This document shows positions 1 to 10,425 of a stretch of DNA of 64,000 nt, in pieces. A program made the position numbers and the translations under genes. Position 1 is the first letter of the stretch. Each line of letters starts with the position of its first letter. The DNA comes from an uncultured Spirochaetota bacterium. Its GTDB lineage: Bacteria; Spirochaetota; Brevinematia; Brevinematales; JAOACQ01. The DNA lies in NCBI GenBank assembly GCA_963835575.1, contig CAWIGG010000004.1, positions 1-64,000 of the forward strand, read 5' to 3'. The notes beneath the pieces are model-generated. The model worked only from the letters and a program-made list of their open reading frames with translations. It did no database searches and had not been told where the DNA came from.

Positions 1-1
1 T

Positions 2-1435
2 CCCCAAATTTACATATTCATTACCGCCGCCGCCTCCGTATTGTTTACGGAACATATGGTTAAAAAGAATATCCAGCGTCTGAGTATCGCCCCAGCTTAA
101 AGGCTTGGGATCCGGCAGAGGAGCGAGAGCCACGGCCCTGACCATAAGATAAAGGTAAAGTGTCATCGCGAAAATAAACATCCATCCGCTGTATGTCAGT
201 ATTTCGATCATTTTATCCGCCAGCCCATAATTCACTTCCGATTTTTTTATAACAGAATCAAAAATCCCGAAGAAGAATAAAACAACAATGGCTAACGCGG
301 CGAGGATGATAATTATAGGGTCGATTTGTGTTTGCTGCATCATTCCCTGCTGAAGCCCTGTATTATCTACCGTAGTGAAACCGAATAAATATTGATTGGT
401 TTGAGGGACAATCTGATTATTATTTACAAAAATTGAAAATGCTATAAAAGCCGCTATACCAATTACTACGGATATTCCATAAACGACCCCGGCTGTGCTG
501 ATCCCAAAAGATTTTTTTACTTTTACAAGTACCGTATAAAAAGTAATATAAGCGGGCACAAGAAAGATGCCGATCAGAATAAGAGGCAGATGGAGCGGAT
601 AAATAAGCCTGATAGCAAACAAATATACATAGAGCAAAATAATGCTCGTGATAAACAGAATTCCAAGAATGATAAGCCCCGGAATTCTGGCGGCAAACTC
701 TTTTTTAAATTGCTTCGTCCCGTCCTGCACAATAATAAAAATGGCAAAAGGCAGCATAACAATGAAAAATGCGGCAATAAACCACAAAGGAAGCATATGA
801 TCAGTAAGAGAAAGTCCCATGATGAAACCGAGCAGGATAGTCATTCTTTCCGCAAAATGGATTTTTACCTCATTCCTGAAATACATCATTTCTTCATACC
901 AGAGCACCATGACAAAAAGCATCGCCGCGACCAAAAGCACGTTCAAGGAATAAAATTTTCCGCTCGCCGAGGATTGCTGCCAGAAATCATAGGAAAAAGC
1001 GAAAATGAAAGCTGACGCGATGGCAGGTAGATGAACTGAAAGCGATATTTTACCTTTGTCCCGGTTGAAACCCAGCAGCTTAACCAGAACAAGATATAAC
1101 ATAAAAATGGCAAAAGCGCCGCTGAAAGCCACATAAAGGTTCACGCGGTGAGCGACATCACCCAGCGGAATAAAGGTAAAGACCTTGCCCAATATGCCGT
1201 AAAGCGGGTATCCCGGAGGATGACAGGCGCCCATTTGGTATATCTCTGTTGTCAGCTCGCCGCTATCCCCGGCTATAACACCCGGCGCCATCGTCCTTAT
1301 GTAAACGATAAGAACTATCAGTGTAATGATTGAAGCAATAACAAGATCAAACCATTTGATCCTGTAAGGCATGAAGCCTTTAGGATAGATCCCCTGAAAT
1401 ATTTTGCTTTCTTTTATTTCGTTTGCATCACTCAT
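2..1435 (-). CDS. DUF2723/TMEM260-like multi-pass membrane glycosyltransferase (putative protein O-mannosyltransferase), partial, runs off the left edge
   Basis: Not in the ORF track because there is no stop in the window. Manual translation from ATG 1435 gives MSDANEIKESK...APGVIAGDSGELTTEIYQMGACHPPGYPLYGILGKVF...RVNLY, with the GDSGE and HPPGYPL motifs of DUF2723 followed by many TM segments. Confidence 0.85.
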   Translation of the reverse strand, partial: MSDANEIKESKIFQGIYPKGFMPYRIKWFDLVIASIITLIVLIVYIRTMAPGVIAGDSGELTTEIYQMGACHPPGYPLYGILGKVFTFIPLGDVAHRVNLYVAFSGAFAIFMLYLVLVKLLGFNRDKGKISLSVHLPAIASAFIFAFSYDFWQQSSASGKFYSLNVLLVAAMLFVMVLWYEEMMYFRNEVKIHFAERMTILLGFIMGLSLTDHMLPLWFIAAFFIVMLPFAIFIIVQDGTKQFKKEFAARIPGLIILGILFITSIILLYVYLFAIRLIYPLHLPLILIGIFLVPAYITFYTVLVKVKKSFGISTAGVVYGISVVIGIAAFIAFSIFVNNNQIVPQTNQYLFGFTTVDNTGLQQGMMQQTQIDPIIIILAALAIVVLFFFGIFDSVIKKSEVNYGLADKMIEILTYSGWMFIFAMTLYLYLMVRAVALAPLPDPKPLSWGDTQTLDILFNHMFRKQYGGGGGNEYVNLG

Positions 1436-1577
1436 AACTGTAACCTTTTTATCCAGCGGAATAATGATTTGAGTATTTTATTTTAAAGATCAAAATATCG
1501 CAATAAACCGGATAAATTTTTAAAATCATTGAATTTATTTATCATCAGATACAAAATCGTGAATTATTGTAGATGGA

Positions 1578-1645
1578 CAGTATATGACTTTTTTGTCCGG
1601 TATACAACTTTATTATCCAGTATACGACTTTATTGTCATTTCACA
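1578..1645 (-). repeat. Tn7-type end: TGT-N5 followed by three 20-bp TnsB-binding repeats
   Basis: Minus strand reads TGT GAAAT GACAATAAAGTCGTATACTG GATAATAAAGTTGTATACCG GACAAAAAAGTCATATACTG; the first unit matches the Tn7 end pattern TGT-N5-GACAATAAAGTC. Confidence 0.85.
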
Positions 1646-1877
1646 GAAGGATACCATTGCAGATCATAGCGAGAAAATAATACTATATACTGCGAATGGA
1701 AGAAGTGGGTACATTAGAGTTCAAGGAGGAAAGATATTTACAAGGGTTCAGGCATTTAACAATGAAAAGGAACCTTTGGGTCCAGCGTACATCGTGGAAC
1801 ATTCATTCGGATATCAATATAAAAAAGTTGACGATCCTGTATCTAAGCTCATTACTATTGCTAAAATGGATTTTTAA
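1646..1877 (+). pseudogene. Probable 3' remnant of a cargo gene truncated at the TnsB-site array
   Basis: The open frame (track ORF 1584..1877) starts inside the repeats. The remainder (KDTIADHSEKIILYTANGRSGYIRVQGG...AKMDF*) reads like natural protein and begins at the ACA terminus. Confidence 0.45.
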
Positions 1878-2002: not shown

Positions 2003-3583
2003 TTATCCAGTCTTTTCCATAATATTTAAGGGTAAAGCATATTTTTCTACGGCCATAGCTATGGCTCTGCTTACAATTTGAGAATAACCCGGCCGGATTC
2101 CCGAGAGTCTCTTTATTTCCCATTCTTTTACTTCATGTTCTTTCGAATGGAGTTCGGCGGCAATCCATTCAATTCGTTTGAGCTGGTAATTTTCCACTGA
2201 TTCAACTGCTGTATAAAGGAATGCCACCGTCTCGGGCATTTCTTTCGGATGTCTCTTCAACCAGGCAAGTGTTCCGGTTATTTTCCCAATTAAATTGACT
2301 GTTATTCTTTTTGGTTTTGCCTTATCGTTAAGTATATTCCGGACAAGAATCTTAGCTTTTGCCAGGATTGCTTTATCCCTCTGAACCCAATCAATTCTAT
2401 TTACTTTTATTTTACTTTTAGAGAGTGGAGAAATATTATCAAGCCAAGTCCTGTCGTTCCTGCGAAGCCAAGTAAATAATCTATAGTTTTTAGATGCCAG
2501 TAAAGACCTCATAAGGCTAGGATATTTATTTTTTAGGCTGGTCCATTCGCTTCTATATTTCTCAAGGGTTGAAACGTCATATGTCTGCTTTTTCAGTATG
2601 TATTGTTTTGTTCCTGTTCTACCTAATTTTAGATACTTTATCTTGCAATACTTCTCCAGGCTTCCACATAAATAGCGCATCATAAGAACATGACGGATTG
2701 GATGGAATGATTTATCATGCTTTCTAATAATTTTTATTGGCCAGCTTCGAGGATTATCAGTGGAGAAATCCGATTGGAGTAATTTAAGAAGACTGCTTCC
2801 AAAATAATTATGGATATCATCAATAAATCTGTCCCAGAAGTGCTTTTTATATTCCATGTTAATTAAGCCCTTGTACCCAAGCAAAGCAACATATTTACGT
2901 CTGAATCCCAGTTCAATATCCTGTGATCTTCTAATTAATTCATAATTATTATATAACCACAGAATGTCTCTTGCAATCTCAGCCAAACTCTCAATGGTAC
3001 TATCCGTTATATGTATAACTGTGGTGATATTCAGACAGTTGTCTGGACCGGCTGCGGAAAATCCTTGTTTATGATCCGCATGAAGTTTAACAAGACTATC
3101 TTGCAGGACTATTTTGTGAACCGGGCAAACCAAGACACCTGGAGTGTTATGGATTCGGTGCCAGTAGTATTCCCCATAATTTGCAAGGTCATTCTGACAG
3201 CAGTCAGGACAGAATTTAAGAATGGGAAATATATGAACAGAACTCGTCGTTATACCTGTCTTTATGTAGACATTTTCTCCATAGGGTCGTCTCATAGCAT
3301 TATATACTGATTTCGCTCTATCAGCGGGTAGAAAAGCCGTATAAAAAGGATACAATGTATGATTCAAAATTAATTCTTTCTTTTTTAAAGAATTATTAAA
3401 CGGTAAATTTTGAATAAGAGTATCTATGTGACAAGGCAAATCAACTACGGAATAAAAGCCTGAATTCCCAAACAGATCTTTCATAGTTGTTCTATAATAA
3501 ATATTGCCGCTACGGACATGGTACCTGGCTAATATACTGTAAAGAAGTTCGTCGGGATATGGATCGGGAAAGAAAGTGACCAT
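2003..3583 (-). CDS. tnsD: TnsD family target-site selection protein (full length)
   Basis: FFPDPYPDELLYSILARYH N-terminus, Zn-binding CPDC...HRIH...CPVH, FHPIRHVL, C-terminal WLRRNDRTWL / RIDWVQRD / KPKRIT motifs. The likely start is MVTFF at 3583 (track ORF starts at 3616). Confidence 0.93.
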   Translation of the reverse strand: MVTFFPDPYPDELLYSILARYHVRSGNIYYRTTMKDLFGNSGFYSVVDLPCHIDTLIQNLPFNNSLKKKELILNHTLYPFYTAFLPADRAKSVYNAMRRPYGENVYIKTGITTSSVHIFPILKFCPDCCQNDLANYGEYYWHRIHNTPGVLVCPVHKIVLQDSLVKLHADHKQGFSAAGPDNCLNITTVIHITDSTIESLAEIARDILWLYNNYELIRRSQDIELGFRRKYVALLGYKGLINMEYKKHFWDRFIDDIHNYFGSSLLKLLQSDFSTDNPRSWPIKIIRKHDKSFHPIRHVLMMRYLCGSLEKYCKIKYLKLGRTGTKQYILKKQTYDVSTLEKYRSEWTSLKNKYPSLMRSLLASKNYRLFTWLRRNDRTWLDNISPLSKSKIKVNRIDWVQRDKAILAKAKILVRNILNDKAKPKRITVNLIGKITGTLAWLKRHPKEMPETVAFLYTAVESVENYQLKRIEWIAAELHSKEHEVKEWEIKRLSGIRPGYSQIVSRAIAMAVEKYALPLNIMEKTG

Positions 3584-3588
3584 ATGAG

Positions 3589-4560
3589 TTATTTTTTTAT
3601 TATATCGGATAGACATGGAATTAATTTACAATAATTTGATTTGCAAGAGTAATAATTAAGGGGTAAATGAGTAAATGAAATCAACCAATTAGGTTTATTA
3701 TCATTACAATTATGTCTTAATAAAGCCTCGAAACAATTATGACTATTCGAAAAGTAAATATGATGAGTAATCATCATCTCATGGTCCCATCCAAAAGGCA
3801 GATACTCATAACTTAGTTTATTTAATGGACGAAATTGATTAAGAAAGCTAAACTTAACATCATTATCAGATCTTATCATTTTATAATTATTAAATAACCA
3901 TTCAACTCCTTCAATATGAAATAAAAGAGCATCAAAATCATCTATCTCTAAATTTCCTGTTGGTGTACCGGAGCAGTTTTCCATATCCGCAGAAATGCAT
4001 TCAAATTTATCGATTTTCTTTAGTTCAATTGTACTGCATTTTAGAAAAGTTTTATGGAAAGGACAAATAAAAGCACAAGGAACATTATGGATTCTGTGCC
4101 AGTAATATTCACCAAATTTCATTAAACTTTCATTATTGCATAAGGTGCAATATTTCAGACACTTGAAAGAATCAATTAAATAATATTTTGGTCTGATCTC
4201 ACCTAAAACACCTACGTCATATTTTTCATTACCCTTCATAGCTTCATAGACAGTTTGTACTTCATATTCCGGAAGGAAAGCTGTATAGTAAGGGAATAAA
4301 GTGTTATTCAATATCAATTCTTTTGCAGTCAGCCCAATCACCATTTGGAGTCTTTCAGCCAGGATGTTTATATAGTTCGGTACATCAAACATTATTTGAA
4401 CATCTAAATTGCCGAATAATTCTAAAATTGTATTTGAAAATAATATATTGCCACTTCTTTTATGATAACGTGCGATAATGCTATAAAGAAGTTCATCTGG
4501 ATAAGGATCTGGGAAAAATATTGGTGATCCTACCCCCTCTCGAAAATATTTAGCCGGCAT
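3589..4560 (-). CDS. tniQ: Short TniQ/TnsD paralog lacking the C-terminal DNA-binding region
   Basis: FFPDPYPDELLYSIIARYH, NNTLFPYYTAFLP, CTLC...YWHRIHNVP...CPFH; collinear with the first ~300 aa of the neighbouring TnsD; the start overlaps the tnsC stop. Confidence 0.88.
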   Translation of the reverse strand: MPAKYFREGVGSPIFFPDPYPDELLYSIIARYHKRSGNILFSNTILELFGNLDVQIMFDVPNYINILAERLQMVIGLTAKELILNNTLFPYYTAFLPEYEVQTVYEAMKGNEKYDVGVLGEIRPKYYLIDSFKCLKYCTLCNNESLMKFGEYYWHRIHNVPCAFICPFHKTFLKCSTIELKKIDKFECISADMENCSGTPTGNLEIDDFDALLFHIEGVEWLFNNYKMIRSDNDVKFSFLNQFRPLNKLSYEYLPFGWDHEMMITHHIYFSNSHNCFEALLRHNCNDNKPNWLISFTHLPLNYYSCKSNYCKLIPCLSDIIKK

Positions 4561-6052
4561 TTTTCGGGATGACGCCGGCATTTTTTAATGATTCATAAGC
4601 ATTCATATTATTTTTCTTTCCTTCATCAATGATATATTTGAGATCGTCTTTATCTTCATTTCTTTCATTTGTAGAAACTTTCTTTGTTTCACTGTTTTTA
4701 AGTTTTAACGTCTTTCTTGTTTTTTTAATATTTAAATTATCATTTATTGTTTCTAAAGATTTATTATAAGCCAGATCCATTTTGGGGTTTAAGTAACTTT
4801 TAGTCTGGTTTTCAATAATTTTATCTATATCAATGGGTGTAAGGTCTTCATATTTGATAATCTTAATCGGGTCTCCGGAACGGAGTGCTGTCAGCATAGG
4901 TTTCACTAATGATAACCATCTATTTGAAGTAGCTTTAATTAAAGCAGGAGTAATTTCCTCTTTTTTTGTAAATATAGCCTCCCTTTGGACTAATACAAAT
5001 AGTTTTACTGCAATATCTACTATCCCCTGGCTCTCTTTATAAAACAAGCCTTTAATTTCAGCTGTCAATTCCGTTTTATTTCTTGTCCATTGATATTTCC
5101 ACATACCCCTCATAAAGATGTCCCACCATTGATCTTTGCGCAAGTTTTCCCATAAAAAACAACCTTCCTGCCCTTCGCTGCGACGGGCTGGGGAGAAATC
5201 TCCTTGCAGTATAGGTTTTGCTTTGTTTGTTCCTATAAGGACAACTGGAACACCTAAATTGTCCACAAGATTAACGAAAAATTTATGCATCCTCTCAGCT
5301 CCAGTCCTTTTTGCATTTAGTAAGGCCTGTATTTCATCTATCACCAATATTCCAAGGTGATGACGTCTTGCTAAAATAGCCATTTTTACCATCATCTGGT
5401 CAACTGTACCCCTCCCCAAAACATTATATGATTCATCTCCAAAAATCCTGCCGAATTCTGTTAAAAAGTTAGTACATAATCCTTTGACACTGCCGTCAAA
5501 GGGACAATCCAGTTTCAACCATACTAACTGAAAATGGTGGAATGGTTTTCCTTTATAATTTTTATGAATGATTACTTGGGAAAATAAGGATAAAATCTTA
5601 TTTACCGCTGTCGACTTACCGGTTCCGGAAGAACCAATAATTGAAAAACCTGAGGCTTTAGCTGGGGGCAGTTTCATATCATTAAAGTTACTGTTGCCAG
5701 CTATAAGAGCTTTATGAAGTTTTGTAAGAGTAACAGAATATGATTGCCATGGATTTCTAGAAATATATCCCTGCCGGATTGTTGTAGATAGTTTGCTTTC
5801 TAATATAAAGTGAGAATCCCAAGGCCTGAAGTAACTATATAGCCTTCGGATATATTGAAATCTATCATCAATGCTATCATTGCATTCTGAATCTTTAAAT
5901 AAAGGGTAATTTTGAGTAATTGAATTAAACTGCTCATATGACAATATGGGATGAAGTGCTTGGGTCAATGGATTGTTATTATATTCAGGTTGTTTAAATT
6001 TGATATATTGTGCTTGTTCAACTGTTACATCATCGGGAAAATTAAATTCCAT
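4550..6052 (-). CDS. tnsC: TnsC AAA+ ATPase
   Basis: YNNNPLTQAL, IRQGYISRNP, Walker A GSSGTGKS, WLKLDCPFDGS, Walker B ILVIDEIQ, SQGIVDIAVKL. Confidence 0.95.
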   Translation of the reverse strand: MEFNFPDDVTVEQAQYIKFKQPEYNNNPLTQALHPILSYEQFNSITQNYPLFKDSECNDSIDDRFQYIRRLYSYFRPWDSHFILESKLSTTIRQGYISRNPWQSYSVTLTKLHKALIAGNSNFNDMKLPPAKASGFSIIGSSGTGKSTAVNKILSLFSQVIIHKNYKGKPFHHFQLVWLKLDCPFDGSVKGLCTNFLTEFGRIFGDESYNVLGRGTVDQMMVKMAILARRHHLGILVIDEIQALLNAKRTGAERMHKFFVNLVDNLGVPVVLIGTNKAKPILQGDFSPARRSEGQEGCFLWENLRKDQWWDIFMRGMWKYQWTRNKTELTAEIKGLFYKESQGIVDIAVKLFVLVQREAIFTKKEEITPALIKATSNRWLSLVKPMLTALRSGDPIKIIKYEDLTPIDIDKIIENQTKSYLNPKMDLAYNKSLETINDNLNIKKTRKTLKLKNSETKKVSTNERNEDKDDLKYIIDEGKKNNMNAYESLKNAGVIPKNAG

Positions 6053-8186
6053 TTTTTTTATTTAATACCTCTTCTTGCTGTTTAATTATATATTCCATGT
6101 CAATTATATTGTCTTCATTATTATTTTCTTTTATTTCTTTTAAAGGATTCGAGTTATTAATCTTATTTTGAATAAATGATTCAGATTTTCTTCTTTTATA
6201 TTTTTCAAAAGCACGATTCTGTCTGATATTGGCAATCTTTTCAGATTTACTAATCTTCAATCCTTTTTTTTGATTATTTTGTTTTATTGCCTTTTGATTA
6301 ACATCATCAATATGTGATTGTAATCCCGCCTCGGATTGAAATTTAGATTCTTCAATTTTCTTATTGTAGTTATTTTGTGTAATAAGAAGGTATTCGAGTT
6401 CCTCAAGTGTTGTATTCTTATATCCTCTGCCTTCAATCATATAAAATTCATCATAATTTTTTCCATCTTCGGATCTGATATAAACATTATCCATGTTCCT
6501 GGGATCGAAAGAAATTTCAATAGGATAATCACCCTTATCCCGGGCTGTTATAAACCAGTTATTAAAATCATCATTTTTATAATAATTCCCTTTGTATCGC
6601 AGACCTCGGCTTGTAACCATGCCCTGGTATTTAGGCATCAATCCAACTTTCAAATCTTTTTCACATATTGTTTGCAAATCTCCAGAACGGTTAGAAAGGC
6701 CCCATTCCCAGAGCTTGAGTGGTATTGGCTCGACATAATCAGAAATCATGATTTCATCTCTTCTAAAATTGTCTATTGGTTTGTTATTGTAATGTAAAAC
6801 ACAGTAAATCATAATCTCTGTAAATTGATCAATATCCAATTGAGCATCGAGCCGGTAGTCATTTCCACCCCTTTGCCTAAAATCAGGGAGTATTGAACCC
6901 GGCATTTGAGGTTTTACTTGTTCATTTATTGTTCTGAAAGTTCGCTCTATAATCCCTTTAAAATCTGCTCGATAAGGGGGGGTATTTTCCACAGTAATAT
7001 GAAACGAATTGATTAATGTATCAGATTGATAACTTATTAATTCCCCTCTGTCTCCTGTAATAATTTTAGGTAGATACTTACAGGGCCAATCTGCATCAGA
7101 AATATGTATGTCAAAATCAGAACAAAATTTAACCTTGTCACTGCCAGTATTTGCTAAAGCCATCATGGCTCCTATCCATGATGGTCCTTCCAGTCCCACA
7201 TAAAGGCCGACAATCATTCTAGAAAAGACATCTTTGACGACATATATTACAGGTCTCCCTATTATACAATCTCTGTTTAATCTCGATAAAAGGTATATGT
7301 CTCCTACAGTTGCATCAATTTGGTATTTGGTCCCAGGACCTATTATTGGTGAATCAGAGGTGTATAAAACCGGTCTTTTATTTAAGTAAAAATAATTTAA
7401 ACTTTGCCTGGATGATATTTTATTTTGGAGATCGCGGTCTTTTTTATCTAGATAATAGTTGAATTGAGTAAGTTTTGGTTTTTGTTTTTTAAAAATCACT
7501 TTTCTGATTCCATTTTCAGTAACAATCTTTTCAGAAAAAAATTTGTTCAACATTTTTAGGTAACTTGCTTTACGTGAATACTTTTTTGGAGAATAGTAAT
7601 ATTTTGTGGCTGCCCATTCGAAAAATATTTCTATGGTCTTATCTATATTGATCCTGCTATCATCAACAGTGTATAATTTGGGAGGTCGTCCAATTTTCTT
7701 GTCACTAAGTTTTTTTGCTTTGCCTTTCCCGCCACATTTTCGAAAATCTGGTAGTAAAGCATTTTTATTTTTCCCTCTCTGCCAGTATCTTCTAATATAT
7801 TTATAGACAGTTCTATAGGAACATTTATACTCATCGACTATTTGCTTAAGGAGTCTTCCCCTGTTTTCACTGTAATATATTTCTGGTTCTGATGAAACTG
7901 CTTTTTCAATCATATTCCACGCGTAATCTCTCATTTTATTATTCTTTTCTCTTATTTTATCTCCAGGGTCAACAAAAAGATACGGATCGGTCGTGACTTT
8001 TTCCATCTTCCCGGATAAAATATGTTCTTTAATTTCATCCATATTTCTTATGATAGGAAGTGCATTTGCCAAATAAATATTTATTAATATAAGTAAGTTT
8101 GATCTGTTATCGACCCATAATACTCTATCAATATTATTTTCAGTATTTTCTGTCGATTGAATCAACTCATTAACTACAATATCCAT
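6042..8186 (-). CDS. tnsB: TnsB DDE transposase
   Basis: RRYWQRG..KNALLPDF, GPGTKYQIDAT (D), GRPVIYVVKDVFSRMIVG, TGDRGE (D), PPYRADFKGIIERTF (E). Confidence 0.96.
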   Translation of the reverse strand: MDIVVNELIQSTENTENNIDRVLWVDNRSNLLILINIYLANALPIIRNMDEIKEHILSGKMEKVTTDPYLFVDPGDKIREKNNKMRDYAWNMIEKAVSSEPEIYYSENRGRLLKQIVDEYKCSYRTVYKYIRRYWQRGKNKNALLPDFRKCGGKGKAKKLSDKKIGRPPKLYTVDDSRINIDKTIEIFFEWAATKYYYSPKKYSRKASYLKMLNKFFSEKIVTENGIRKVIFKKQKPKLTQFNYYLDKKDRDLQNKISSRQSLNYFYLNKRPVLYTSDSPIIGPGTKYQIDATVGDIYLLSRLNRDCIIGRPVIYVVKDVFSRMIVGLYVGLEGPSWIGAMMALANTGSDKVKFCSDFDIHISDADWPCKYLPKIITGDRGELISYQSDTLINSFHITVENTPPYRADFKGIIERTFRTINEQVKPQMPGSILPDFRQRGGNDYRLDAQLDIDQFTEIMIYCVLHYNNKPIDNFRRDEIMISDYVEPIPLKLWEWGLSNRSGDLQTICEKDLKVGLMPKYQGMVTSRGLRYKGNYYKNDDFNNWFITARDKGDYPIEISFDPRNMDNVYIRSEDGKNYDEFYMIEGRGYKNTTLEELEYLLITQNNYNKKIEESKFQSEAGLQSHIDDVNQKAIKQNNQKKGLKISKSEKIANIRQNRAFEKYKRRKSESFIQNKINNSNPLKEIKENNNEDNIIDMEYIIKQQEEVLNKKNGI

Positions 8187-9028
8187 TATGCAAGCATCTC
8201 CTTTTCAACCTGTATTTTATCATTTACGATAAGATTTTCTATGCCATTATCTAAATTAATACTGATATTTAAATTCATAGATATACGTTTTGTTGATAAG
8301 AGATGAAGGAAGACTTGTAGGAACTTGCCTGGTTTTTCGCTAAATTCTATATCAAGCATATTTAAAACTGACCTTATTGGTCCTTTTTCTTTTGGAATTC
8401 TCTTGATTAAAATTGAAATGAGGTTTTCAAATTTTATGGAATCTGTAACACATAAATCTTCAAGACTATGATAGCTATGGAGAAATTCAATGTTGGATGA
8501 TAATGTTTTAGGGATGTCTTTATCAATTATTAAATTCCATTGGATTCCTGCCCCTTTCCAATATTTACTTTCTATTCTAAGTTTATTTATCACACTATTT
8601 TCTTCCAATTTCTCAAAAGGTAAAACCGATATAGCCTTATCGATTGTTTTCCCGTCATTTATTTTGGTTATTATAAAATCCGAATATAGGACACGAGGAT
8701 TCCCAGTTCTGTTATTATATGGGTATTTTAATCCCTTTTCATTTGCTATTTTAATTGCAAGTTCAATATTCAATAAAGGATATTTTTCACGTATGTCAAT
8801 TACCGAATCATCCCATTCCATTAGATAAAAATACCTTGTTTCATTATCTGAAAAAAGATGATGCATCCTTTGACTTTTCCAGCCGAATATTCTGGATGTT
8901 TTTCCTATGGAAGTTTGGTTTTGTACTTTAGCCCAAGGTTGGTAATTTTTCCCATGTTTTTCGGCATAGCCAGCTTTAAGATAAGTGATTAATTTTTTGT
9001 CGCTATGTAAAAGTTGTCTCCTTTCCAA
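8186..9028 (-). CDS. tnsA: TnsA endonuclease (catalytic Lys apparently substituted)
   Basis: YQPW, GWKSQRMHHLFSDNE, DIREKYPLL, YSDFII, KLRIESKYW; TTG start with a GGAGG RBS. Confidence 0.92.
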   Translation of the reverse strand: MERRQLLHSDKKLITYLKAGYAEKHGKNYQPWAKVQNQTSIGKTSRIFGWKSQRMHHLFSDNETRYFYLMEWDDSVIDIREKYPLLNIELAIKIANEKGLKYPYNNRTGNPRVLYSDFIITKINDGKTIDKAISVLPFEKLEENSVINKLRIESKYWKGAGIQWNLIIDKDIPKTLSSNIEFLHSYHSLEDLCVTDSIKFENLISILIKRIPKEKGPIRSVLNMLDIEFSEKPGKFLQVFLHLLSTKRISMNLNISINLDNGIENLIVNDKIQVEKEMLA

Positions 9029-9092
9029 GCTACCTCCGAATATTTTTTAATTATTTAAAATCGGGTAAGTATAGCTTAATTTTGAAATCTTT

Positions 9093-9140
9093 CATTACAC
9101 AACATTTTTATCCATTATACAACTTTTTTATTTATTTACA
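9093..9140 (-). repeat. Transposon end next to tnsA: TGT-N5 plus two 20-bp TnsB sites
   Basis: Minus strand reads TGT AAATA AATAAAAAAGTTGTATAATG GATAAAAATGTTGTGTAATG, the same consensus and 20-bp period as the 1578-1637 repeats. Confidence 0.85.
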
Positions 9141-9141
9141 C

Positions 9142-10425
9142 CTATTTCCTCGCCAGCAGTGCGAGCATCTCCACATGATGCGTCTGCGGGAACATATCGA
9201 CGAGGATCAGTTCTTTAACGGTGTAAAGATTGCTGAGAGCCTTGATGTCCCTGGCCATTGTCGGCGGCCGGCATGAGGAATAGATGATCTTTCCCGGCAG
9301 CATTTTCCTGAGCGTTTCGATGGTGCTTTCATCCATTCCGCGCCGGGGCGGGTCGACAATCATCACATCGGCATAGCCGAGTTCCGGGAGCTTCTGCTCG
9401 ACCGTCGCGCAGATGAACTGTACATTAGTCTTGATTTGATTATTTTCCATGTTCTGTTTCGCGTCTTCCACGGCGCTTTTAGCGATCTCGATGCCGATTG
9501 TCTCTTTAGCGAAATAACTGACAAAGAGGGTAATGAGTCCGATGCCGCAGTAAAGGTCAAAAATCCGCTCGTGCCCGTCCGCGTCCAGAAAACCGGTGAT
9601 CTTCTCGAGCCAGAGAGGAATGACTGAGTTATTGACCTGGTAAAAGCTGTCCTTGGAGATCTTGAATTTAATTTCACGTCCGGCCGCGCGGACCGTCTCG
9701 TATACTTCCCTGTCCTGGTACTCGTCGGAAGCGATCCAGTTCACGACAGTATCAGCTTCCTCCGTTGTCCTGACCTTGAAATTATGGGGAGGGTAGACCG
9801 GGTTGGCCCTGACGCTCAAGAGGGCTTTATTGATGCCGGGCATGGCCAGCATGCACTCCTGTATATCGACAACTGACTTTGTGTCTTTACGGAAAAAGCC
9901 GATGAGCTTTCTTTTAGGGTTGACCTTGAAAGTCTCCGTATTGCGGTAATAAAAAGGCCTGGGGCTCATGATCACGCCTGTCAGGTCGTCTATCGTCATT
10001 TGACCGATGCGCCGGAATGCTTCCAGGACAAGCTGTTTTTTTACAGCAATCTGCTTTTCATAGGGAAGCATCTGGTAGTCGCAGCCGCCGCAGAGGCCGA
10101 AGTAAGGGCATAGGGCTTTTATCCGGTCCGGTGAGGCCTTGAGTATTTCCATGGGCTCGCCGACTGCATAGTCTTTTGTTTCCTTGTAAATATTGGCCTT
10201 TATCCGCTCGCCGGGAAGCGCGTAACGGACAAAAATCACTTTTCCCTCGTCGTATCCGATGGCGCTTCCCTCGCCCGCGAATTTCTCTATGCCGAGCTCC
10301 ACTTCTCTTTTTACCGGCTTGATTTTCCGCGGATTGAAGGAAGGAAGTTCTTCTTCATCATTCGGGTTTCCCAGGGCCCCGTTTTCAAGATTCTCGTCAG
10401 GATTTTTTTCTTCGTTTATCGGCAT
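9142..10425 (-). CDS. rlmD: 23S rRNA m5U1939 methyltransferase RlmD (TrmA/RumA family)
   Basis: TRAM domain, Fe-S motif CPYFGLCGGC, SFYQVN, DLYCGIG, VDPPRRG, YSSC, DMFPQTHHVE. Confidence 0.93.
   Translation of the reverse strand: MPINEEKNPDENLENGALGNPNDEEELPSFNPRKIKPVKREVELGIEKFAGEGSAIGYDEGKVIFVRYALPGERIKANIYKETKDYAVGEPMEILKASPDRIKALCPYFGLCGGCDYQMLPYEKQIAVKKQLVLEAFRRIGQMTIDDLTGVIMSPRPFYYRNTETFKVNPKRKLIGFFRKDTKSVVDIQECMLAMPGINKALLSVRANPVYPPHNFKVRTTEEADTVVNWIASDEYQDREVYETVRAAGREIKFKISKDSFYQVNNSVIPLWLEKITGFLDADGHERIFDLYCGIGLITLFVSYFAKETIGIEIAKSAVEDAKQNMENNQIKTNVQFICATVEQKLPELGYADVMIVDPPRRGMDESTIETLRKMLPGKIIYSSCRPPTMARDIKALSNLYTVKELILVDMFPQTHHVEMLALLARK

Follow-up and report, generated by a model that had tools for sequence, protein, structure and literature searches.

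A Tn7-like element encoding TnsA, TnsB, TnsC, a TniQ protein and TnsD very likely homes to the 3′ coding end of rlmD, the gene for the 23S rRNA m5U1939 methyltransferase, by a protein-guided TnsD pathway. The element reaches into the start of a 64,000-nucleotide stretch from an uncultured Spirochaetota bacterium (the window, G000:C4:1-64000, where G000 is the window genome). The target gene is identified by TIGR00479 (296.7 bits against a cut-off of 183.55), and when its 3′ end is read on the minus strand the codons CAT GTG GAG are followed by 28 nt and then by the TGT of the element at 9140, which lies 1 nt past the rlmD TAG. The original prediction had placed an end at this position, about 28 bp past the motif DMFPQTHHVE, with the tnsA side facing an intact rlmD, and the coordinates confirm it: the stop codon falls within a target-site duplication of 5 bp and rlmD is unchanged.

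When the whole genome was scanned, six Tn7-type ends were found. The partner of the end in the window is a left-type end at G000:C3:244177, with three spaced TnsB sites at positions 10, 77 and 152 (C3:244186, 244253 and 244328) of the same flavour as those in the window, and it is preceded by an exact CCTAT; simple arithmetic puts the chance of an exact 5-bp match among the three left-type ends of the genome at about 3/1024. The element therefore has the TGT/ACA termini, asymmetric TnsB-site arrays, 5-bp duplication and tnsA/tnsB/tnsC plus TniQ/TnsD operon of a Tn7-like transposon, the operon genes being identified by Pfam and by matches in PDB. It is about 97 kb long, with 88.3 kb on C3 and 9.1 kb in the window, so the limits 2003..9200 first assigned to it did not hold. 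A left end close to tnsD was also sought, and none has a CCTAT flank; the TGT...ACA at 1568-1645 marks where another, nested element ends.

The two parts of the element are joined through the C3 tail and the window start, which are halves of one TMEM260-like gene split by an insertion sequence (IS) with an 8-bp duplication. In three genomes of the same genus rlmD is followed directly by GH10 and phosphoglucomutase genes, and in a fourth two short open reading frames (ORFs) lie between; G000 has the GH10 and phosphoglucomutase genes left of C3:244177, in the same orientation. We infer the C3-C4 join from this synteny and the IS duplication, and go no further because the C5 tail, an identical copy of window 1-1645, competes for it. 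Given an element of about 97 kb, the TMEM260/DUF2723 gene is cargo and not the neighbour of rlmD at an empty site, as had been supposed. The proposed comparison with an empty locus succeeded in its main part, in that the rlmD site is empty in 4/4 same-genus genomes, and failed in the neighbours it named, which are GH10 and phosphoglucomutase instead of DUF2723.

To place the TnsD of this element among its relatives, we used a phylum sample of 401 genomes and an order sample of 35. A TnsD match was found in 6/401 phylum genomes. Tabulating the genes beside TnsD homologues, as the original prediction had advised, puts the closest of them (55% identity, G276, same family but another genus) at rlmD as well. 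There it belongs to a complete element of 21.3 kb, flanked by an exact duplication of its own (AGTAC) and inserted 26 nt past the same Glu codon and inside the reading frame, with the tnsA end again facing rlmD. Its single TniQ-family gene is the orthologue of the 537-aa TnsD of the window, which points to the 537-aa protein as the selector. This TnsD gene is present as predicted, although it is not the sole TniQ-family gene of the element, since a gene for a 330-aa TniQ adjoins it. Within the order, Tn7-type ends occur at rlmD in 2/35 genomes, which are the two that encode this TnsD; a further G000 match, 38 nt behind an rlmD paralogue, was counted as chance. TnsC occurs in 5/35 order genomes, among them G160 with its element at purU, G196 with its element at glmS, and G132, where the gene is on a 1.5-kb contig and rlmD is empty; the element of G331 is at glmS, as in G196.

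With only two spirochaete cases from the same family, and with the Bacillota TnsDs described below in a separate clade, the pair could be one ancestral chance insertion inherited vertically, unrelated to the Bacillota and with no TnsD specificity behind it. We regard this as most improbable. The offsets (28 and 26 nt), the duplications and the TnsB sites differ, and TnsA, TnsB and TnsC are only 38-50% identical between the two genomes, as compared with 68% for RlmD, and for these reasons we treat the G276 insertion as a separate event; the four empty same-genus sites also speak against vertical inheritance. The G276 element itself has decayed, its tnsB being broken into two frames and its tnsA reduced to 230 aa (L030:12092-15091).

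Homing to rlmD by means of TnsD gains further support from outside the spirochaetes. GTDB species were scanned for the rlmD motif (DMFPxTxHVE) followed at 16-40 nt by a strict Tn7 end, and this gave 23 junctions, with G276 DNA also among them under a record titled Spirochaetota. The offsets are 24 nt (n=1), 25 nt (n=12), 26 nt (n=5), 27 nt (n=3), 28 nt (n=1) and 36 nt (n=1). The last of these (L061) was counted as chance, and the clustering of 22/23 at 24-28 nt has p=8e-15 under a uniform null, a value overstated by kinship. By record title 21/22 junctions are from Bacillota. Exact duplications close the elements at L046, L057 and L066, and do so across contigs in G408. The insertion thus recurs at a fixed distance and orientation, at 28 and 26 nt in the spirochaetes and at 24-28 nt in the GTDB set, and since Tn7-like elements in Bacillota use rlmD as well, the site is not confined to spirochaetes. 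The predicted new specificity in a spirochaete is accordingly supported as to the site and too narrow as to the host, the Bacillota elements using rlmD with another TnsD lineage.

A blind test was made with eight genomes chosen solely by the similarity of a TnsD to that of G408 or G421 (3/400 and 5/400). All eight have a TGT end 24-27 nt past the rlmD motif, and in four of them tnsD shares its contig and strand with the end, which lies 47-55 kb upstream of it. The target therefore tracks the TnsD clade, in 2/2 spirochaete cases (a small number) and in 8/8 blind Bacillota cases. With a looser pattern, 26/401 genomes of a Paenibacillus-family sample match, 23/401 of them at 25-27 nt; the matches at 16, 39 and 39 nt were counted as chance. 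An end is found at rlmD in 3/3 TnsD carriers of this family and in 19/397 others (p=1.5e-4, again overstated by kinship). At 23/401 genomes rlmD is not a rare homing site, and since most of these ends have no transposition genes nearby, surveys based on genes would miss them. Selection of the rlmD 3′ end by this TnsD, the central claim of the original prediction, is thus supported by G276, by the co-occurrence in 2/35 order genomes and by the recurrence in Bacillota.

Bacillota rlmD sites often hold a double-ended mini-Tn7 unit of about 290 bp (L046, L051, L055, L057, L058, L064, G408:C17, G421:C5), which stands alone with its own duplication or is directly repeated on either side of 44-55 kb of DNA whose tns genes are at the far end. 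The inner flanks of these units, TAGTA/TACTA, recur across genera. In G1183 and G850 (L204, L208, L212, L215) both rlmD-family paralogues have a Tn7-type end at 24-26 nt; the second rlmD paralogue of the window genome (C2:634052) has none.

The spacing of the insertion tracks the motif and not the stop codon. As the offset is fixed to the motif, 15/19 insertions at intact genes precede the native stop and clip the last codons of rlmD, the element supplying a new stop, and the catalytic motif is always spared. At the modal offset of 25 nt, a TGTAA or TGTAG end gives an in-frame stop 2 nt inside the element in 10/12 cases (L045, L049, L051, L053, L055, L057-L060 and L063). The 3′ end of rlmD may be called a safe harbour with this qualification.

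The same gene end is used by integrative and conjugative or integrative and mobilizable elements (ICEs/IMEs), and rumA is documented as a serine-integrase site in streptococci in PMC13693407. The rlmD 3′ end could then be a generic hotspot into which recombinase-based elements integrate, the Tn7-like elements being passengers or untargeted. This would fit an orphan copy of the motif, cut off from its gene as an island would leave it, at 3/22 junctions (L046, L052, L064), and the resolvase or integrase gene beside tnsA in the Bacillota elements. The junctions nevertheless consist of TGT ends with arrays of TnsB sites and duplications of 5 bp, and their offset varies over 5 nt, which indicates transposition and not site-specific recombination; the streptococcal elements recombine site-specifically inside the gene, whereas the window element moved by DDE transposition with a 5-bp duplication. 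Occupancy of rlmD also tracks the TnsD clade, and we consider the hotspot explanation very unlikely, even though recombinase-based elements and transposons alike seek this gene end.

A careful tree was built from 35 TnsD cores out of a 103-row quick tree, with near-duplicates, the 330-aa TniQ and the longest branches left out. The two spirochaete rlmD TnsDs group together (100/95) and are sister to a purU-linked pair (100/99), and the Bacillota rlmD TnsDs make up a separate clade (100/100) that falls within another one (96/92). Monophyly of the six rlmD TnsDs (four rows named by att gene, with G406 and L141 added from the quick tree) is rejected by an approximately unbiased test (p-AU 3.7e-5). 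The rlmD site has apparently been reached by two TnsD lineages, to judge from the sequences, and the tns genes face rlmD in the spirochaetes and lie at the far end in the Bacillota. Both clades lack the module of their glmS-targeting kin that comprises the second zinc finger and third helix-turn-helix (ZnF2-HTH3): the window TnsD is without 121 aligned residues, a cysteine-rich and HTH segment, and the same segment is missing in the G276, purU and Bacillota rlmD TnsDs (121-149 residues). The AlphaFold model of the window TnsD (mean predicted confidence, pLDDT, 82.8) shows the TnsD core followed by helical modules, with a brief disordered stretch (329-345) linking the two, and its N-terminal fold matches Tn7 TnsD 1-318 (Foldseek E 8.6e-13).

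When the published contacts of AvTnsD are considered in the context of these results, a molecular basis for the choice of rlmD can be proposed. According to PMC13251919, AvTnsD reads glmS mainly with HTH4-6, and the additional ZnF2 and HTH3 touch -45 to -33. In 11/14 cases the protein P0021 agrees with AvTnsD in both the identity and the number of the named residue, so the AvTnsD contacts were mapped through it by inference. In a register where -1 is the last base of the glmS stop, the contacts given in that paper fit the glmS codons N-L-A-K-S-V-T-V-E, with R608 and R613 falling on GT.GA of Val-Glu, K31 on the Thr codon, K560 on -17 and R479 on the Asn codon. Between the Glu codon and TGT there are 26-30 nt at the 7 glmS loci measured, as compared with 24-28 nt for rlmD, which places rlmD M-F-P-Q-T-H-H-V-E in register with the glmS codons. 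Both spirochaete TnsDs keep the equivalents of R491, H561, R608 and R613 (the last two being R503 and R508 of the window protein) and have changed K31 to R42, R479 to A374 and K560 to R455 in window numbering. The purU sister TnsD keeps the R608 position and has Thr at 613, and its purU target has TT for GT.

We therefore suggest the following scheme, in which direct binding by TnsD, the roles of individual residues and the order of events are all conditional. The 537-aa TnsD would bind about 30 bp of conserved rlmD codons through HTH4-6 and load TnsC, and TnsAB would then insert the element with its close-sited end toward rlmD. The gene would survive, since the enzyme's catalytic end is the motif itself and only variable tail codons lie beyond it. 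Such a protein may have arisen from a long glmS-type TnsD that lost ZnF2-HTH3 and had a few base-reading residues retuned. The H-V-E codons of rlmD (CAY GTN GAR) are in register with the T-V-E codons of glmS relative to the insertion point, HTH6 keeps the arginines reading GT.GA (R503, R508), and positions reading bases that differ have changed in both spirochaete proteins. A second TnsD clade, in Bacillota, would use the site independently. It is about an even bet, in our view, that unrelated branches of glmS-type TnsD, each dropping ZnF2-HTH3, came to home to rlmD on two or more occasions, in spirochaetes and in Bacillota; that the switch was easy, because the His-Val-Glu codons of rlmD give the GTNGA that is read in glmS Thr-Val-Glu; that glmS, rlmD and purU form a natural series in which a handful of residues predicts specificity; and that rlmD is a common, near-neutral landing pad in Gram-positive bacteria.

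Several observations weigh against homing by TnsD or against its proposed molecular basis. The spirochaete clade has two members, and the next TnsD relative (41%, G160) is at purU and not at rlmD, from which it follows that specificity shifts over short distances. For G406 and G421 the search for a partner end flanked by the expected duplication found none, and a TniQ match is present in 9/22 rlmD-junction genomes and absent from 13/22. Long TnsDs differ at position 613, where R, K, G and H occur, the Bacillota clade lacks the same base-reading residues, and the residue mapping was made through P0021, standing in for the AvTnsD sequence. The C5 tail offers a rival to the C3-C4 join. Finally, rlmD is in view at 0/80 metagenomic TnsD loci (the best 80 of 448) and glmS or its 3′ end at 8/80, all of these loci being at most 46% identical in the best segment. 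A protein search gave at least 462 matches among its top-scoring 7999 candidates, of which the best 120 were listed; it missed the full-length G276 protein and its matches carry no gene context, and P0003 matches the G276 TnsD over its N-terminal part. A single-protein TnsD locus scan of GTDB gave 27 candidates and confirmed none of them, and the read data, one run with a 151-nt piece only, held no empty-site reads.

The G160 element (G160:C25, L031:13303-14352) is a tnsABCD element with a 524-aa TnsD that starts 25 nt past the stop of purU (TIGR00655, over the cut-off), making purU a candidate for a further att site from one case; no partner end with the expected duplication was found. A 533-aa gene follows tnsD in both G276 and G160 and is TnsE-like by position only, with no match in Pfam, NCBIfam, PDB or Atlas.

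The order tnsC-tniQ-tnsD is the dual arrangement found in some CRISPR-associated transposons (CASTs), as described in PMC10293859, and cas6, cas8b (TM1802) and cas7 lie 3-8 kb outside the far end. The 330-aa TniQ might therefore borrow the host type I-B Cascade beyond that end, with a guide against rlmD. We hold such RNA-guided homing to be extremely improbable: 0/51 spacers match the rlmD end, the element has no repeat-like unit, and a 32-nt match to the site reaches 22/32 at best. The cas genes also fall outside the duplication, and there is no other left end farther out, so that no Cas effector and homing guide lie inside the ends as in a CAST, and G276 sits at rlmD without a second TniQ. 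The features of the element in the window are collected below.

Table 1. Features at the rlmD-proximal end of the element, in window coordinates.
Feature	Position	Strand	Basis
TMEM260-like (DUF2723) gene, 5′ part; nested-element cargo; IS-split at the contig break	2..1435	-	94% copy at C4:65102
Right-type end of nested gene-less mini-element, different TnsB-site flavour	1579..1645	-	partner G000:C3:328831
Small ORF, 3′ part; interrupted just past its start by the nested mini-element	1646..1877	+	paralogue at C3:327820
tnsD, 537 aa; TniQ core and three C-terminal helical modules (HTH4-6), without ZnF2-HTH3; putative rlmD selector	2003..3616	-	Pfam, alignment, AlphaFold
Second TniQ gene, 330 aa, core only; 36% to TnsD core; long branch in tree	3589..4581	-	Pfam
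tnsC, 500 aa, AAA+ ATPase; Walker A and B present	4550..6052	-	Pfam, motifs
tnsB, 714 aa, DDE transposase; open frame; QIDAT/GDRGE/IERTF motifs	6042..8186	-	Pfam, motifs
tnsA, 280 aa	8186..9028	-	PF08722/PF08721
Right-type end on the tnsA side: TGT with a close pair of TnsB sites (9131, 9111)	9094..9140	-	end scan
5-bp target-site duplication CCTAT, overlapping the rlmD stop codon	9141..9145	+	exact copy ahead of G000:C3:244177
rlmD/rumA (23S rRNA m5U1939 methyltransferase), host target gene, intact	9142..10425	-	TIGR00479, PF05958, TRAM
DMFPQTHHVE codons, putative TnsD recognition window	9169..9198	-	end 28 nt ahead of the element

The element shares with Tn7 at attTn7/glmS the TnsA/B/C/D gene order, TGT...ACA ends, a 5-bp duplication, TnsB sites that lie close together at the att-proximal end and apart at the opposite one, and a fixed distance from a conserved C-terminal motif. 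It differs in its target, in having a second TniQ and no gene at the tnsE position, in inserting on or before the stop where Tn7 inserts about 25 nt beyond it, and in its length of about 97 kb with nested ends. It is thus not Tn7 sensu stricto, which lies downstream of glmS and has TnsE. Among the matches listed, the nearest relatives of the window TnsD are glmS-type TnsDs of 620-650 aa such as that of AvCAST (type I-B1), with which HTH4-6 and most base-reading positions align (PMC13251919); it differs from the AvCAST protein in the 121 missing residues (ZnF2-HTH3) and in the changed K31, R479 and K560, and the window element has no Cascade. Other protein-guided elements likewise read a conserved coding end, the att sites including parE (Tn7017), nrdB, nrdD, tRNA genes, yhiN (Tn6230) and comM (Tn6022), according to PMC11406308, PMC11014353 and bioRxiv 10.1101/2025.07.27.667033.

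No description of rlmD/rumA as a Tn7-like site was found in the literature searched, although subscription papers and supplements may name it; the gene is not named in the accessible main texts of PMC10293859, PMC11406308 (with its Table 1), PMC8649781, PMC11014353 and bioRxiv 10.1101/2025.07.27.667033. Within Tn7-like elements rlmD is probably a new target specificity that evolved twice. Further att sites of this kind are to be expected, and the surprise is moderate. The retargeting of TnsD is testable, as close natural relatives aim at glmS, rlmD and purU and their differences map onto base-contact residues, and the rlmD end may give spirochaetes and Bacillota a second neutral integration site that is orthogonal to glmS.

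The tnsB, tnsC and tnsD frames of the window are open and their motifs are kept. The lysine of the TnsA QVK motif is catalytic, and the window TnsA has Leu136 where Tn7 TnsA has the Lys of AIQVKP, a residue retained in 7/7 other aligned TnsAs (QVK/TVK). The window TnsA is possibly nuclease-dead, a suggestion made from the alignment, and loss of the catalytic Lys would favour cointegrates. Between tnsD and the nested end the only gene is a split 97-aa ORF, and there is no TnsE gene there.

The nested mini-element spans C3:328831 to window 1645, carries a DUF2723-type gene and has the flanks GAGGG/GAAGG (1 mismatch). The copy of window 1-1645 at G000:C5:484916-486560 stops exactly at the nested TGT and adjoins an integrase gene; a second insertion, a rearrangement product and an assembly branch are all candidates for its origin. 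A type I-B CRISPR-Cas locus with 52 repeats (G000:C3:228081-241418) separates the far end from the GH10 gene that is conserved in the genus, and none was seen here in the loci of the four same-genus genomes. The cargo on C3 (G000:C3:244177-332479) includes a second groESL, 86% identical to the C2 copy, genes for sulfate activation and tetrapyrrole synthesis that are not closely matched anywhere else in the genome, an AbiEii-type pair, an RND pump, ankyrin proteins and numerous IS. At C3:252872, 8.7 kb inside the element, is another left-type end with sites of the element's own flavour; its flank is ACTAT (4/5 to the duplication), and it is probably left over from stepwise growth.

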